From: a virus
Taxonomy: Duplodnaviria; Heunggongvirae; Uroviricota; Caudoviricetes
Length of the DNA stretch: 5,056 nt
IMG/VR virus record: IMGVR_UViG_2529293223_000003
Reading direction: 5' to 3' (one strand)
Part shown: one piece after another, positions 1-5,056 of the stretch
Numbering within the stretch: position 1 is the stretch's first letter
How the letters are laid out: each line of letters starts with the position of its first letter
The notes under the pieces: model-generated
What the model was told of the DNA's origin: nothing
What the model saw: only the letters and a program-made list of their open reading frames with translations
Database searches by the model: none
Position numbers and translations under genes: made by a program

Positions 1-7
1 AAATAGA

Positions 8-1030
8 ATGGCATCAGAAGAGCTAATAATGAGCAGAAAAACCCAACGTTACTCTAAAGAGTTCAAAGCCGAAGCTGTCAGAACGGTTCTTGAAAATCAA
101 CTTTCGATCAGTGAAGGCGCTTCCCGATTATCCCTTCCTGAAGGCACTTTAGGACAATGGGTTACCGCCGCCAGAAAAGGGCTCGGTACTCCTGGTTCCC
201 GCACGGTGGCTGAACTGGAATCTGAAATTCTGCAACTGCGTAAGGCGTTAAATGAAGCTCGCCTTGAGCGAGATATATTAAAAAAAAGCAACAGCGTATT
301 TTGCACAGGAGTCGCTGAAAAATACGCGTTAATCGAACAATGGCGACAACAATTTCCTATTGAAGCGATGTGTCAGGTATTTGGTGTATCCAGGAGCGGT
401 TATTACAACTGGGTACAGCATGAACCCTCAGACAGAAAACAAAGTGATGAGCGGCTAAAACTGGAGATTAAGGTGGCACATATCCGCACTCGCGAAACAT
501 ATGGAACCCGGCGGCTCCAGACGGAGCTGGCAGAGAATGGCATCATCGTTGGTCGTGACCGACTGGCACGTCTTCGTAAGGAGCTAAGGCTACGCTGTAA
601 GCAGGAACGCAAGTTCAGAGCGACTACGAACTCGAACCACAATCTGCCAGTTGCGCCAAATCTGCTGAACCAGACGTTCGCTCCTACAGCACCAAATCAG
701 GTCTGGGTGGCGGACCTGACGTATGTTGCCACACAGGAGGGATGGTTGTACCTCGCTGGCATCAAAGATGTTTATACGTGCGAAATTGTCGGCTACGCCA
801 TGGGAGAGCGCATGACAAAAGAGCTGACAGGTAAAGCCCTGTTTATGGCGCTCAGGAGCCAGCGCCCACCTGCCGGGCTAATCCACCACTCTGATCGAGG
901 TTCACAGTACTGCGCATACGATTACCGGGTCATACAGGAGCAGTTTGGTCTGAAAACATCAATGTCGCGTAAAGGTAACTGTTACGACAACGCTCCGATG
1001 GAAAGCTTCTGGGGAACGCTGAAAAAATGA
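8..1030 (+). CDS. IS3-family transposase, OrfA-OrfB fused in one continuous frame (340 codons); likely true start is the ATG at 29 (MSRKTQRYSKEF...); C-terminus frameshifted
   Basis: Six-frame ORF 8..1030. An A8 run at 280-287 places orfA and orfB in one frame. With one fewer A the upstream frame reads ...LKKATAYFAQESLKNTR then TAA, a typical 100-aa OrfA ending, so this ORF corresponds to the OrfAB fusion normally made by -1 ribosomal frameshifting on A AAA AAA. The ORF ends at TGA 1028-1030 immediately after an A6 run. Confidence 0.8.
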   Translation: MASEELIMSRKTQRYSKEFKAEAVRTVLENQLSISEGASRLSLPEGTLGQWVTAARKGLGTPGSRTVAELESEILQLRKALNEARLERDILKKSNSVFCTGVAEKYALIEQWRQQFPIEAMCQVFGVSRSGYYNWVQHEPSDRKQSDERLKLEIKVAHIRTRETYGTRRLQTELAENGIIVGRDRLARLRKELRLRCKQERKFRATTNSNHNLPVAPNLLNQTFAPTAPNQVWVADLTYVATQEGWLYLAGIKDVYTCEIVGYAMGERMTKELTGKALFMALRSQRPPAGLIHHSDRGSQYCAYDYRVIQEQFGLKTSMSRKGNCYDNAPMESFWGTLKK

Positions 1031-1118
1031 GAGCCTGAGCCACTATCGTTTTAATAACCGGGATGAAGCCATCTCAGTAATACGGGAATACATTGAGATT
1101 TTCTACAATCGTCAGCGT
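1026..1118 (+). pseudogene. Out-of-frame C-terminal fragment of the IS3-family orfB (NESLSHYRFNNRDEAISVIREYIEIFYNRQR), cut by the Mu insertion
   Basis: Translating the +1 frame from 1026 gives 31 codons with the conserved IS3-family C-terminal pattern (LKNE...F..R.EA...I.EYIE.FYN..R), ending exactly at the Mu terminus. The frame break is at the A6 run 1022-1027. Confidence 0.7.
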
Positions 1119-1200
1119 TGAAGCGGCGCACGAAAAACGCGAAAGCGTTTCACGATAAATGCGAAAACTTTAGCTTTCGCGCTTCAAATGAAACAGCAGT
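1119..1200. mobile_element. Phage Mu right end (attR) with MuA-binding sites R1, R2 and inverted R3; Mu terminus at 1119 (5'-TG...)
   Basis: 1119-1168 reads TGAAGCGGCGCACGAAAAACGCGAAAGCGTTTCACGATAAATGCGAAAAC, which I recognise as the canonical 50-bp Mu R-end. 1172-1198 holds an inverted copy of the MuA consensus (reverse complement TGTTTCATTTGAAGCGCGAAAG). Confidence 0.85.
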
Positions 1201-1233
1201 ATTAATTACCGCTTTTTATTCATTACATGGGGA

Positions 1234-1959
1234 TCACTTAGGGTATGGCTGAACCTTGAATAGTTTGGTATTTAGCCGCTTCCTTGCTCGCTTGTTCAGG
1301 AATCTGATGTAGCGATACTGATTAAATTTGTGCACCACGGCACGCTCCTTATTAGCTCGCAAATACTCGCCTCGTTGCCCTCCGCGCTTAATCGCGTTCA
1401 TCGTTATCTCGTGATACCACTCACCATCCAGCTCGTAGAACGTGCTTTCATGGCTGCCAATAAAATCAAAATTCGACGCCTGATACACAACGCCTGCGAG
1501 TCCGCAGCGTTCGTCAGCAAAGGACTGAACCCACTCCACTGACGGATACAGTAATCTGATAACTTTCAGCGCGTAGCTGATGGCCCGTGATTCAGAGTTG
1601 CGGGGCATGTCGTCGTGTAGCCACATGCGATTCAACTCCATATAGCCCCGGTTATCCGTTTCAAGCACGACACGACGACCTGAGTTGGGGTTAAGGGCAT
1701 ATCCCCACTGGAGAACGCCAACCAGATCACGCCCGCTGAATACTCCCAGGTGAAGGTAAGAGTTATTCACAAAACGGCGGGAATAGTGCTTTGTCTGAAT
1801 GATTGTGCGGGCCAGCCAGCAGGATATGGTTTCAACGCGCAGCTCCTTTGAACCATAGCCAACAATCTGGCCTTCATACTCAATAACGCACGGTTTCGTC
1901 AGAATGCGTGATTTCTTCTCTTTTCCCACAATGTTTCTCCGTGGGATGCTCGCAGACAT
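1234..1959 (-). CDS. mom: Mom, phage Mu DNA-modification protein (adenine N6 carbamoylmethyl/acetamido modification, anti-restriction)
   Basis: ORF 1234..1959 (241 codons from the ATG at 1959). A shorter 231-codon product from the GTG at 1929 is possible. Sits immediately downstream of com with overlapping frames, as in the Mu com-mom operon, next to the Mu right end. Confidence 0.85.
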
Positions 1960-2068
1960 TCAGCATTATGATGTGACGTTTGCAACGCGGACACCTGATT
2001 TCAATGTGATCAAAGGAATCCGCTTTAAATAACAGTTTGTTGCAGTTCTTACAGCGAATTGATTTCAT
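1880..2068 (-). CDS. com: Com, 62-aa zinc-finger translational activator of mom
   Basis: [38 protein letters not shown]... with four Cys in a CxxC...CxxC arrangement. The ATG at 2066-2068 is preceded by a strong Shine-Dalgarno (AAGGAGGT, 5 nt upstream). The ORF track's longer 2086 start lacks this. The 3' end overlaps the mom start region. Confidence 0.9.
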
Positions 2069-2086
2069 TTCACCTCCTTGCATCAA

Positions 2087-2180
2087 TTCGCCGTTATCTT
2101 AAAAAATCTCATCAGTCGGGTGTGGTTATCGGGACATAATCGATCGGTAATACAGATCGATTTAATTGATTCGATCGTCG
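2087..2180 (-). promoter_or_regulatory. com-mom promoter region: three Dam GATC sites (2142-2145, 2155-2158, 2173-2176), T6 run and -10-like TAAGAT (minus strand, about 2096-2106)
   Basis: Three GATC sites within 35 bp upstream of com, the last inside the final codons of the gin remnant. On the minus strand, GAGATTTTTTAAGATAACGG precedes com. This matches the known Dam/OxyR- and C-protein-regulated mom promoter architecture of Mu. Exact -35/-10 assignment is uncertain. Confidence 0.6.
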
Positions 2181-2359
2181 TTTTCTATATGCGTTCCTTT
2201 TTGAAGGCGCTTTAAAGCACGTTTTAATCCCGGTCGGTCTGTCCTTGTTCCGCTTAATTTATCTTCAAATATTTGTTCACATCCTGCACAAACAAGAGCG
2301 TTTCGTTGCAGGTCTGTATTCTGGTCATTTGTTGATACCCTTACATAGCCAATCAGCAC
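2162..2359 (-). pseudogene. gin: gin serine DNA invertase, internally deleted in frame: 65-codon remnant with N-terminal 55 residues and C-terminal about 9 residues
   Basis: GTG start at 2359. MLIGYVRVSTNDQNTDLQRNALVCAGCEQIFEDKLSGTRTDRPGLKRALKRLQKG matches the N-terminus of Gin/Pin/Hin/Cin-type invertases, with the catalytic Ser at residue 9. The ORF then reads T-HIENDDRIN and stops. Full-length invertases are about 185-195 aa, and the gix-to-com interval has no room for another one. Junction is around 2189-2197. Confidence 0.8.
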
Positions 2360-2413
2360 GCTGAATTCCCCGTTTAAAAGCGGAAATCATGCCATGCAGG
2401 CCAGAAACGGCCA

Positions 2414-2439
2414 TTATCTAAAACCTCGGTTTACAGGAA
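2414..2439. other. gix recombination (crossover) site, the gin-proximal boundary of the invertible G segment
   Basis: TTATCTAAAACCTCGGTTTACAGGAA is a 26-bp imperfect palindrome of the hix/gix/cix type (TT.....AAACC / GGTTT.....AA half-sites around a 2-bp core), 55 bp upstream of the gin start. The tail-fibre reading frame opens immediately inside it. Confidence 0.7.
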
Positions 2440-3384
2440 ACGGTAAATCAGGCTTCTGGCGCATTACAGAAAAACCAGAACGGCGCAGATATTCCAGGAA
2501 AAGATACCTTCACCAAAAATATTGGGGCCTGCCGCGCATATAGCGCATGGGTGGATATTGGTGGCGATAGTCAGGTCTGGACAACTGCGCAATTTATTTC
2601 GTGGCTGGAGAGTCAGGGGGCATTTAACCATCCTTACTGGATGTGCAAAGGCTCATGGGCTTATGCAAACAATAAGGTCATTACAGATACAGGTTGCGGA
2701 AATATTTGTCTTGCAGGTGCTGTGGTGGAAGTTACTGGCACTCGCGGCGCAATGACCATACGTGTTACTACACCGAGTACGTCCAGCGGTGGCGGAATTA
2801 CTAACGCTCAATTCACTTATATTAATCATGGCAATGCTTATGCTCCTGGCTGGCGACGAGACTACAACACGAAAAACCAGCAGCCTGCATTTGCTTTAGG
2901 GCAAACAGGAAATACCGTCGGAAACGACAAAGCCGTTGGCTGGAACTGGAATAGCGGTGTTTATGATGCAGATATCAGCGGTGCATCAACATTAATCCTC
3001 CACTTCAATAAGAATACGGGGAGCTGCCCTGCTGTACAGTTCCGTGTGAATTATAAGAACGGCGGTATTTTTTATCGTTCAGCGCGTGATGGTTATGGAT
3101 TTGAGGCTGGCTGGTCAGAGTTTTACACCACAACACGCAAGCCATCAGCGAGAGATGTTGGCGCATATACGCAGGCAGAATGTAACTCAAGGTTTATTAC
3201 AGGTATTCGCCTTGGTGGTCTGTCATCTGTTCGGACATGGAATGGTCCCGGCTGGTCTGACAGGTCAGGTTATGTTGTTACCGGTTCCGTTAACTCAAAC
3301 AGAGATGAACTAATTGATACAACTCAGGCAAGGCCAGTTCAGTATTGCATTAATGGGACGTGGTATAACGCGGGGAGTATTTAA
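2422..3384 (+). CDS. S': Tail-fibre variable C-terminal part, gin-proximal cassette (probably S'v, silent in this orientation); no start codon of its own
   Basis: The frame is open from the stop at 2419-2421 (inside gix) through to 3384. The track's GTG at 2551 has no Shine-Dalgarno. C-terminus ...PVQYCINGTWYNAGSI parallels the other cassette. The S' versus S label is inferred from partner sizes (U' 177 aa, U 175 aa, from memory). Confidence 0.7.
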   Translation, partial: NLGLQETVNQASGALQKNQNGADIPGKDTFTKNIGACRAYSAWVDIGGDSQVWTTAQFISWLESQGAFNHPYWMCKGSWAYANNKVITDTGCGNICLAGAVVEVTGTRGAMTIRVTTPSTSSGGGITNAQFTYINHGNAYAPGWRRDYNTKNQQPAFALGQTGNTVGNDKAVGWNWNSGVYDADISGASTLILHFNKNTGSCPAVQFRVNYKNGGIFYRSARDGYGFEAGWSEFYTTTRKPSARDVGAYTQAECNSRFITGIRLGGLSSVRTWNGPGWSDRSGYVVTGSVNSNRDELIDTTQARPVQYCINGTWYNAGSI

Positions 3385-3386
3385 CG

Positions 3387-3920
3387 ATGATGCACTTAAA
3401 AAACATTTCTGCTGGTAATCCTGAAACAAAAGAGCAATACCAGCTAACGAAGCAATTTAACATCAAATGGCTTTATACAGAGGATGGAAAAAACTGGTAT
3501 GAGGAACAAAAGAATTTCCAGTCTGATACGTTGAAAATGGTCTATGACCACAACGGCGTTATTATTTGTATTGAAAAGGATGTTTCAGCAATTAATCCGG
3601 AAGGCGCAAGCGTCGTTGAGGTTCCTGATATTACAGCAAATCGCCGGGCTGATATTTCAGGTAAATGGATGTTCAAAGATGGCGTAGTGATAAAGCGAAC
3701 TTATACCGGGGAAGAGCAGAGGCAACAGGCGGAAAATGAAAAGCAAAGCCTGCTACAGCTCGTCAGGGATAAAACCCAGCTATGGGACTCACAGCTACGG
3801 CTGGGTATCATTTCCGACGAGAATAAACAAAAATTAACCGAGTGGATGCTCTATGCGCAGAAAGTCGAATCCACAGACACCTCCAGCCTGTCAGTAACGT
3901 TTCCCGAACAACCTGAATGA
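3387..3920 (+). CDS. U': Tail-fibre assembly protein (Tfa family), 177 aa, probably U'
   Basis: ORF 3387..3920, MMHLKNISAGNPETKEQYQLTK..., starting 2 nt after the tail-fibre stop with a GGGGAG Shine-Dalgarno. N-terminal about 110 residues are paralogous to the minus-strand Tfa, the C-terminus diverges. Confidence 0.85.
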   Translation: MMHLKNISAGNPETKEQYQLTKQFNIKWLYTEDGKNWYEEQKNFQSDTLKMVYDHNGVIICIEKDVSAINPEGASVVEVPDITANRRADISGKWMFKDGVVIKRTYTGEEQRQQAENEKQSLLQLVRDKTQLWDSQLRLGIISDENKQKLTEWMLYAQKVESTDTSSLSVTFPEQPE

Positions 3921-3923
3921 GAC

Positions 3924-3950
3924 AAGGCCCGCTATCGGGCCTTAATTTTT
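3924..3950 (+). terminator. Intrinsic-terminator-like hairpin between the convergent tfa genes (stem AAGGCCCG / CGGGCCTT, loop CTAT, then AATTTTT)
   Basis: 8-bp GC-rich stem at 3924-3931 and 3936-3943 followed by a T5 run on the plus strand. The U-tract is weaker on the minus strand, so bidirectional function is uncertain. Confidence 0.5.
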
Positions 3951-4476
3951 ACTCTGGTTTTTGTGGCCATTCTGGCTTTGCCGTATCCACACGGCTGACC
4001 AGAACACTGTAGCGTTCCCATGACTCCAGTCGTGCGCGTTCCTCATCTGTTGCCATATTCAGCCTGACAGAGCGCTCCAGCGGCTGAATAACGCTTTCTG
4101 CTTCGGAAAGTAACGCAGCTTTTTGTAATTCGGCCTGTTGTTGCTGTTCGTCTGCCGTATAAATCCGTTTAACCACAGCTCCGTCCTTAAACATCCATTT
4201 ACCTGAGTCATCAGCACGTCGGTTGGCTGTTATATCGGGGATTTCAACGACGCTAAAACCTTCAGGATTAAGCGTGGAGGCATCTTTAGTGACGGCGACA
4301 ATAATATTATTTTCGTCGTAAACAATCTTTATTGTGTCCGGCTGAAAGTTCTTCACTTCCTCATACCAGTTTTTATCGTCTTCAGAGTAAAGCCAGATGA
4401 CTCCGTGTTTCTTTGTCAGCTCATACTGTTCTGGTGTTTTAGCGTTACCCGCTTTTATATTCTTCAGGTGCATCAT
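3949..4476 (-). CDS. U: Tail-fibre assembly protein (Tfa family), 175 aa, probably U
   Basis: ORF 3949..4509 trimmed to the [11 protein letters not shown]... start at 4476, which mirrors the plus-strand tfa start and lies 1 nt after the upstream tail-fibre stop (4478-4480). The 11 extra N-terminal codons in the track ORF overlap the tail-fibre gene and are unlikely to be real. Confidence 0.85.
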
Positions 4477-4477
4477 A

Positions 4478-5056
4478 TTAAATACTCGCCACATTATACC
4501 AAGTGCCATTTATATACTTTTGCACTGGCCTGTAATGAACGCCTGCAATATTATCGGCAGAGTTTTTTCCGGTATCCTGTACGTTAATCCCCGTCAGTAC
4601 ATAGCCTGACGGGCACTGGAAATTCCATGTTTGCCAGTTGTTCACTCCATAATATTGCTGTGAACCAAGCCGGACATCTTTCACATATCTGGAATCAAAA
4701 TTGCCATAGTTGCCTGGAATAACTTGCGAGCCGCAAAGCCAGTTACCGTTATTATCCATGTACGCCTGACCATCGGTGCCATTGGCTGTCCTTGAGTTAT
4801 TAATCATGTAGATGCCAAATTGCTTATTCCCCAGCCCACCAATTACGAATTTACGGTCGGTATGGTCCTGGCGAAGCAATGCCTGCGCACCATCGTTGGA
4901 TACCGCATTACGGCCCAGAATAACATTCTGGTCACGCATATGAATCCACATGCCGGTACTACTGTTAATTGCAAAACGGTTTGCAAATATATCTCCTGTA
5001 ACAACCAGACCATGCCCCATGCTTATCCGGCCAGTTCTGAGATTAAGCGTAAAGGG
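4478..5056 (-). CDS. S: Tail-fibre variable C-terminal part, distal cassette (probably Sv, the expressed one if fused to a constant part outside the window); partial, continues past the window end
   Basis: Minus-strand frame is open from the window edge (5056) to the stop at 4478-4480. C-terminus ...[16 protein letters not shown]. The ATG at 5020 is internal. Confidence 0.75.

Follow-up and report, generated by a model that had tools for sequence, protein, structure and literature searches.

The presence of mom-like and com-like frames next to an insertion sequence raises the question of whether this locus holds a complete DNA-modification operon of the phage Mu type, and whether such an operon could still be switched on where it now lies. 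The window, by which we mean the whole stretch of 5,056 nucleotides analysed here (IMG/VR record IMGVR_UViG_2529293223_000003), had been interpreted in a sequence-only reading as carrying a com-mom operon of the Mu type with its regulatory signals intact. The operon itself was confirmed, since every listed feature is found on the minus strand and the published control elements stand in the Mu arrangement. As to the signals, all of the elements are present, but the Com target bears a private C to U change at 1956. Our analysis indicates that the region is very probably the com-mom late operon at the right end of a Mu-like transposable prophage, in the allele of S. flexneri and S. boydii, and that it would work as in Mu. 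The support that we collected for this consists of sequence identity, open frames, conserved residues, a conserved promoter grammar and covarying RNA hairpins. Judged from its sequence, the operon is structurally intact, with genes and control signals complete except for the 1956 base in the Com-target hairpin. The module is an already well-understood Mu-type system, and the allele is present in many public Shigella-type genomes.

The right end of a Mu-like prophage occupies the minus strand of 1119–2412, where the Mu terminus (from 1119) is followed by mom, com and the mom promoter and then by what remains of gin (Table 1). The annotation of phage Mu (NC_000929) is collinear with the window through the Mu end, mom, com, the mom promoter, gin and the invertible S'/U'/U/S tail-fibre segment. 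Over 1119-2200 the window matches the final 1,083 bases of Mu at 96.0% identity, and over 2196-4519 it matches the Mu G segment at 91.9%. The canonical terminal sequence, which reads 5'-TGAAGCGGCGCACGAAAAACGCGAAAGCG on the plus strand, stands at 1119 directly after internal IS600 sequence, and the flanks differ at other loci. The IS600 part is 99.6% identical to plasmid features annotated 'IS3-like element IS600 family transposase' and matches the NCBIfam model transpos_IS3 (E=2.6e-106). In one related locus, L002, the IS600 continues beyond the point where the window switches to Mu sequence. The element in the window thus ends at an internal IS position exactly where Mu terminal TGAAGCGGCGCAC... 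starts, as is characteristic of a Mu-type element inserted in an IS. The same IS600 junction occurs independently in locus L023, which is collinear with window 368-3429 at 99.6% identity. An exact-protein look-up of the fused IS600 frame returned no record in the public gene collection, and an exact-junction scan of species-representative genomes gave no match for either the IS600/Mu-end junction or the gin-deletion junction.

Table 1. Positions of the features of the right-end block and its flanks in the window
Feature	Position	Strand	Remarks
IS600 (IS3 family)	1..1118	+	broken at internal position by Mu-type end
Prophage right end (attR side)	1119..1233	-	alignment with last bases of NC_000929 starts exactly at 1119
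mom	1234..1929	-	231 codons from GUG 1929; stop TGA 1236-1234
com	1880..2068	-	62 codons; CCCC zinc-ribbon translational activator of mom
Translation-inhibition stem-loop	1925..1945	-	CCCAC-GGAGAAACAUU-GUGGG; holds mom Shine-Dalgarno GGAG and GUG start
Com-target hairpin	1946..1959	-	5'-AUGU-CUGCGA-GCAU-3'
Com-target 19-mers			native GAAUGCCUGCGAGCAUCCC; U-variant GAAUGUCUGCGAGCAUCCC
Upstream in-frame ATG (241-codon annotation)	1957..1959	-	5' arm of Com-target hairpin
Pmom core	2089..2139	-	from Mu Pmom alignment; inferred +1 ~2089
Pmom -10	2096-2101	-	TAAGAT
Pmom T6 run	2101-2106	-	
Pmom -35	2121-2126	-	ACCACA; 19-bp spacer to -10
C-activator site	2126-2139	-	TTAT-GTCCCG-ATAA; half-sites TTAT-N6-ATAA, overlapping -35
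Dam/OxyR control region	2142..2188	-	GATC 2142-2145, 2155-2158, 2173-2176; about -53 to -87
gin' (G-segment invertase remnant)	2162..2359	-	65 codons; Gin residues 56-183 lost in frame; junction 2196-2200
Invertible G segment	2413..5056		Sv' 2551-3384 (+), U' 3387-3920 (+), U 4476-3949 (-), S variable part 4478 onward (-)

The upstream flank has an in-frame deletion of 128 codons, equivalent to about 380-384 bp of Mu and lying entirely inside gin, after which the remaining frame matches only the N-terminal part of the Pfam Resolvase family. Next comes the G segment, whose orientation relative to mom is the opposite one in L002-L011 and whose variable S part runs off the window. A lesion in the S tail-fibre frame near 5020 was considered and ruled out, the frame being open to the window end.

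The promoter retains the Mu architecture, with three GATC sites upstream and a C site over a poor -35, followed by a 19-bp spacer, a T6 run and a poor -10; the mom +1 was placed from the primer position given in PMC3378877. A cluster of three GATC sites and a T6-run promoter with a weak -10 had both been proposed from the letters of the sequence, and both are found, at 2142-2176 and at 2101-2106 (with the -10 TAAGAT), respectively. The pattern GATC-N7-16-GATC-N7-16-GATC occurs once in the window, which has eight GATC in total, against 0.01 expected from 200 shuffles, so the cluster is non-random. The full grammar, GATC-14-GATC-9-GATC-GA-TTAT-N6-ATAA-N19-T6-AAGAT, has the same layout in 42 related sequences, and all 42 promoters that fit it keep the three GATC sites with their 14-nt and 9-nt gaps. 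Between the second GATC and the -10, the window and its relatives differ by 13 substitutions from Mu, D108, PhiR68_1, SfMu and E. coli prophages; every defined promoter element and spacing is preserved in this allele, and the substitutions might affect the binding of C or Fis. The spacer of the C site, GTCCCG in the window, varies naturally (GCCCCA, GTCTCA, GCCCTA, GTCCTG), and the window-type -35/-10 spacer is seen exclusively in copies that have the gin deletion (15/15). A C-independent promoter such as that of tin7 (TTTGTT) was also considered and ruled out by the intact T6 run. Since the T6 run is intact and a scan of the window found no sigma-70 consensus promoter, the window Pmom is expected to depend on C.

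The gin deletion approaches this control region: counted from the inferred mom +1, its junction falls at about -107 to -111. Fis sites have been mapped in Pmom at -123, -98, -49, -38 and +3, and repression is affected by the last three only (PMC3378877). The deletion therefore costs only the dispensable -123 site, and all three GATC and the C site are retained despite it.

For the genes and their RNA we compared the window with 91 com-mom operons that share the com/mom arrangement, taken from Mu, D108, PhiR68_1, SfMu, E. coli prophages, Shigella loci and IMG/VR contigs with 72-100% Mom identity, so that the set comprises 92 sequences. The com frame is preceded by the Shine-Dalgarno sequence AAGGAGGTGA (2079-2070) and encodes the zinc ligands Cys6, Cys9, Cys26 and Cys29 of an N-terminal CCCC zinc ribbon, a module described for Com (PMC6483171). 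The product matches Pfam Zn_ribbon_Com (PF10122, E=2e-9) and differs from Mu Com at two of its 62 residues (A38V, K52E). The strong Shine-Dalgarno and the four-Cys zinc finger that had been ascribed to com are thus both real features of the sequence, as is the overlap of mom with the 3' end of com, which measures 50 nt if mom starts at the GTG at 1929 and 80 nt if it starts at the ATG at 1959.

Folding of the com 3'/mom 5' RNA, which had been suggested as a check, gives two adjacent hairpins in register, with the Com target (1959-1946) directly 5' of an inhibitory stem (1945-1925) in which the GUG start is predicted to be sequestered, and this fold matches the published com/mom RNA model (PMC6483171). 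The inhibitory stem-loop appears in both the MFE and the centroid folds and is conserved in 92/92 relatives. The Com hairpin is further supported by covariation, with both sides changing in three of the four pairs and with pairing in 94.6% of cells; no shuffle attained the observed covariation score, and the closing pair is C-G in 13 of 14 haplotypes. The proposal that the mom start is sequestered and needs Com is supported, the predicted stem hiding the Shine-Dalgarno and GUG in the manner described in PMC6483171; the Com target on which the unlocking would depend bears the C to U change. The start codon had been left ambiguous between the ATG at 1959 (241 codons) and the GTG at 1929 (231 codons). 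All 92 related operons carry the GUG within the 3' arm of the inhibitory stem; at the position of the upstream codon 56 have ATG, eight have GTG and 28 have GCG or GCA. The same location of the GUG, inside the stem that inhibits translation, is given in the published model (PMC6483171). From these counts the mom start is resolved to GUG 1929, giving 231 codons. ATG 1959 is probably not the physiological start, and the 241-codon Mom annotated in NC_000929 is an over-extension.

The mom frame had been called intact, and its alignment with Mu contains no frameshift or stop. At the codon level there are 18 synonymous and three non-synonymous differences, the latter producing P2S, R154L and V198E (3 of 241 residues). 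The protein matches the Pfam family Mom (PF25680) over profile positions 1-202 of 202 (E=6.8e-75), which places it in that family, and the crystal structure 8bv8 over residues 11-241 (E=6e-157); setting aside the engineered S124A of the crystal, it differs from 8bv8 only at L154 and E198. Mom is a GNAT-fold enzyme that moves glycine from Gly-tRNA(Gly) to the adenine N6 in duplex DNA, after which the product rearranges on the base; W48, H58, Y59, R111, S124, D149, R151, Y159 and W181 are reported as important, and an enzyme lacking the first 10 residues (Delta-10) is still active (PMC13219725, 2026). All nine residues are present in the window Mom, including R111, S124, D149 and R151, which are required for activity, together with the HTH-like insertion (~175-209), in which V198E lies. 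In an alignment of 115 Mom family representatives, H58, Y59, R111, S124, D149, R151 and Y159 are invariant or nearly so, and W48 and W181 are conserved in about two-thirds. Glutamate is the commonest residue in column 198. Column 154 is variable (R 68, G 24, K 10, C 10, A 2) and is also polymorphic within the lineage, with R154 in locus L009; leucine was found at this position, three residues from the essential R151, in none of the 115. With the required residues present, glutamate common in column 198 and column 154 variable, nothing here argues for a dead Mom; L154 is the one feature that may bear on its competence. An exact-protein look-up found no record of the window's 241-aa Mom in the public gene collection.

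If the elements act as they do in Mu, expression would proceed as follows. Transcription would start from the weak Pmom, with its poor -35 and -10, 19-bp spacer and T6 tract. OxyR would repress this promoter whenever the three upstream GATC sites lack Dam methylation, and the phage late activator C would be required, binding TTAT-N6-ATAA over the -35. From the resulting bicistronic mRNA, com would be translated from its strong Shine-Dalgarno, and Com, as a Cys4 zinc ribbon, would bind the hairpin at 1959-1946 and open the stem-loop at 1945-1925 that hides the mom Shine-Dalgarno and GUG 1929. Mom would then transfer glycine from Gly-tRNA(Gly) to the adenine N6, where the glycyl group would rearrange to N6-carbamoylmethyl-adenine, a modification that would block many restriction enzymes. 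The target consensus of Mom is 5'-(C/G)A(G/C)N(C/T)-3'. We infer that the module would still be expressible, hinging on a C gene beyond the window and on the binding of Com to a target with U at 1956.

That base is the one place where the window departs from an otherwise constant signal. The change, C to U in the mRNA, is the only difference between the window and loci L006-L008 over 1119-2412 (1,294 bp). All ten close relatives and Mu have C at 1956, as do 91/91 of the other sequences in the comparison. This base contributes the 5' side of the loop-closing pair and is also the initial C of the CC(N)3GAG Com motif; apart from C6 to U, the target in the window equals the native 19-mer GAAUGCCUGCGAGCAUCCC (PMC6483171). 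The window's U.G closing pair and UC(N)3GAG motif are unique among the 92 sequences, the other 91 having C-G. In SELEX the closing pair of the Com target was 'invariably C-G', and with U1956 the predicted energy of the hairpin weakens from -2.4 to -0.7 kcal/mol. Given the altered closing pair and the weaker hairpin, Com-dependent translation of mom may be weakened. The GA and the first loop C of the target, whose SHAPE reactivity is reduced on Com binding, are unchanged in the window. The same substitution also produces A38V in Com, and an exact-protein look-up found no record of Com(V38) elsewhere in the public gene collection.

The block is widespread in related genomes. Chromosomes of S. 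flexneri and S. boydii and other E. coli/Shigella-type assemblies match 1119–2412 at 99.6–99.9% identity. In the public gene collection, 613 blocks list the 65-aa Gin', and com and mom follow it in each of the places shown. Carriers include S. flexneri 3a FDAARGOS_713 (CP054892; PMC9455713), S. boydii 600080 (CP049606; PMC7545283) and Shigella strain 888048 (CP066809; PMC8549364). The gin deletion is absent from all complete E. coli RefSeq genomes in the searched set, and among viral contigs a scan found the gin' junction in only four short contigs and in no full prophage. At twelve loci the Mu end adjoins the dpiA/cit region; the IS600 junction is found only in the window and L023. Two distinct right-end junctions of one deletion allele imply that the gin-deleted phage could still transpose or that the block was moved later. 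The frames are kept open in a great many genomes, at no fewer than two sites of insertion.

The form that these copies take bears on whether the operon is a silent relic, stranded whole in a decaying IS-associated remnant without its cognate C, in which the 1956 change would also block unlocking by Com and no Mom would be made. We consider this quite possible, if short of probable. The element survives in most carriers as a remnant of some 5 kb, and no late activator lies near it. L002-L008, L010 and L011 and the IMG contigs L102, L104 and L105 are such remnants, located between IS600 and dcuC/dpiA-cit and without early or middle genes; copies of the L002 type have IS600 on the other side. In Mu, C lies about 26 kb from mom, and a homology search with Mu C yielded 21 relatives; the closest full-length one was traced to an unrelated contig, which gave no link to a gin'-carrying genome. 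A decaying element would also agree with the destruction of the neighbouring gin, with a private change in the one hairpin pair that otherwise never varies, with a Com(V38) that is found nowhere else in the public gene collection, and with the restriction of L154 to remnant copies, R154 being found in L009, where the block is attached to a tail module. Several observations weigh on the other side. Both the com and mom frames are open, U.G still pairs, the SHAPE-responsive GA and loop C are unaltered, and the window retains more of the G segment than do the L002-type remnants. The L009 copy of the block continues into a whole Mu-type tail module, and its contig breaks off precisely at the Mu end, which is what a following repeat such as IS600 would produce. 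Further, the genome that shares the window's junction has a second Mu-like com-mom operon (L049), which might supply C and Com in trans.

The private base might also be a base-call or assembly error and no real mutation, in which case the operon would be identical to the common Shigella allele. We think this unlikely, although an isolated difference from L006-L008 in 1,294 bp is what an error would leave, the resulting Com and 241-aa Mom are both without any record, and the same window has three homopolymer-length differences from other IS600 copies (G/GG at 20, A8/A7 at 280-287, A6/A5 at 1022-1027), of the type made by error-prone reads. The change at 1956 is a substitution and not a homopolymer indel, and the window also departs from L023 by ordinary substitutions, 10 within the G segment (2496-3386) and one at 605 in IS600. 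The window therefore comes from a distinct strain, in which private SNPs are to be expected. The closing pair of the Com target being otherwise invariant, a single-base variant that occurs there naturally could serve as a ready-made test of the model of Com recognition.

A further reading, that gin'-com-mom is a module retained in Shigella that the C and Com of a co-resident Mu-like prophage could activate in trans, with the C to U change as a natural down- or up-mutation, seems to us distinctly improbable. That the DNA is laboratory phage Mu (a Mu cts or mini-Mu insertion) and not a natural prophage can be dismissed as next to impossible, for although the layout is identical to the Mu right end and the laboratory strains S17-1 and ST18 are among the E. 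coli matches, it is refuted by the identity figures, with only 96.0% identity to Mu over mom-com against 99.6-99.9% to the S. flexneri/S. boydii chromosomes and other E. coli/Shigella-type assemblies, and by the distinct promoter allele and the gin deletion, neither of which is present in Mu, D108, SfMu or any complete E. coli RefSeq genome searched.

Under the reading that we prefer, of a com-mom late operon at a Mu-like right end, the block is best labelled in annotation as the right end of a gin-deleted Mu-like prophage with com and mom, the latter starting from GUG 1929. Should mom be expressed, as might happen when a co-resident Mu-like phage is induced, N6-carbamoylmethyl-adenine would appear in host DNA and would affect both restriction and long-read base-calling.

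Among the closest known systems is the gin'-com-mom block of S. flexneri (CP054892), S. boydii (CP049606) and the IMG/VR contigs L022-L025, which shares the gin junction and the promoter allele with the window. Every Shigella-type copy of the block has Mom E198 and all but L009 have L154; at 1956 they have C throughout, whereas the window has U. The com-mom operon of Mu itself (NC_000929, Mup54/Mup55) resembles the window in gene order, in the overlap of the two genes and in its position at the right end, as well as in the Pmom layout, the Com zinc ligands, the inhibitory stem-loop and the GUG start. It differs by the 13 substitutions from the second GATC to the -10 and by changes around +1, the window having a leader shorter by 1 nt, the C to U change in the Com target and a gin deletion through which the DNA beyond about -107 is lost together with the Fis site at -123. 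SfMu (NC_027382) and D108 also have gin-com-mom at the right end and are about 96% identical to the window over mom-com, and the SfMu Gin end (...KRTHIENDDRIN...) shares THIENDDRIN with the C-terminus of the window's gin remnant. Unlike the window, both have a full-length gin and a Mu-type Pmom spacer, and the Mom of SfMu has R154 and V198.

Two distinct right-end junctions of the gin-deleted element were found when the window was compared with L023, an IMG/VR contig sharing its IS600 junction, and with the close relatives L002-L011. In the window and L023 the right end lies inside IS600, while at 12 loci it adjoins the dpiA/cit region. The two sites imply either that transposition of the phage followed the gin deletion or that the block was relocated later. 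The invertible G segment of the window and L023 is in the opposite orientation to that of L002-L011. The truncated invertase Gin', judged from its sequence, should be inactive, and inversion of G either predates the gin deletion or was carried out in trans by another Din-family invertase. PMC3378877 places the Fis-dependent enhancer in the 5' part of gin, roughly 550 bp before the start of mom, and by this position it probably falls inside the retained part of the gene. The G segment has only 92-97% identity to any relative found, compared with 99.9% for the neighbouring mom block, and L002-type loci contain an additional piece within it. This divergence, together with the additional piece, points to a mosaic or multi-site inversion history of the tail-fibre region.

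Features of the window compared with related loci
Feature	Coordinates	Strand	Observation
IS600 homopolymer	20		G; GG in other copies
IS600 programmed -1 frameshift site	280-287		A8; A7 in other copies
IS600 homopolymer	1022-1027		A6; A5 in other copies
Fused orfA/orfB frame	8-1030		340 codons; stop at 1028-1030
Right-end junction	1118/1119
Terminator-like hairpins	1138-1213	minus	three, with T tails
Mom codon 154	1499		L
Gin'	2162-2412 region		residues 56-183 absent
G segment	2413-5056
Site of additional piece in L002-type loci	between 4713 and 4721		768 bp

The window's IS600 differs from other copies in the length of three homopolymers. The A8 run fuses orfA and orfB into a single frame, and with the A6 run this frame then ends at the stop listed. 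In L023, which represents this locus in a different genome, the run corresponding to A6 is A5. The three length differences represent genuine mutations or, alternatively, base-call errors in homopolymers. The three hairpins listed, which lie past the mom stop and before the Mu end, are among five terminator-like hairpins found in total across 1100-2450, where 1.2 were expected; they sit in right-end sequence, where Mu has its transposase-binding repeats.

The IMG genome of L023 and L103, which has the window's IS600 junction, also holds a second, different com-mom operon (L049, IMGVR_UViG_2529293223_000015). Its Mom is 96% identical and its Com hairpin reads GUGC-CCGGGA-GCAU, and this operon could be a source of C and Com in trans. 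Mom codon 154 is polymorphic within the gin' lineage: the copy joined to a complete tail module (L009) encodes R, like Mu, while the short remnants share the residue of the window. More distant Mom homologues, 77-78% identical, were found in L091, L093, L094 and L095. In the sequence that precedes the Mom match at 1501, all four are without a com-type hairpin or an inhibitory stem, and a GATC-rich stretch lies immediately 5' of the Mom start. These loci may represent a com-less mom arrangement under a different control scheme.
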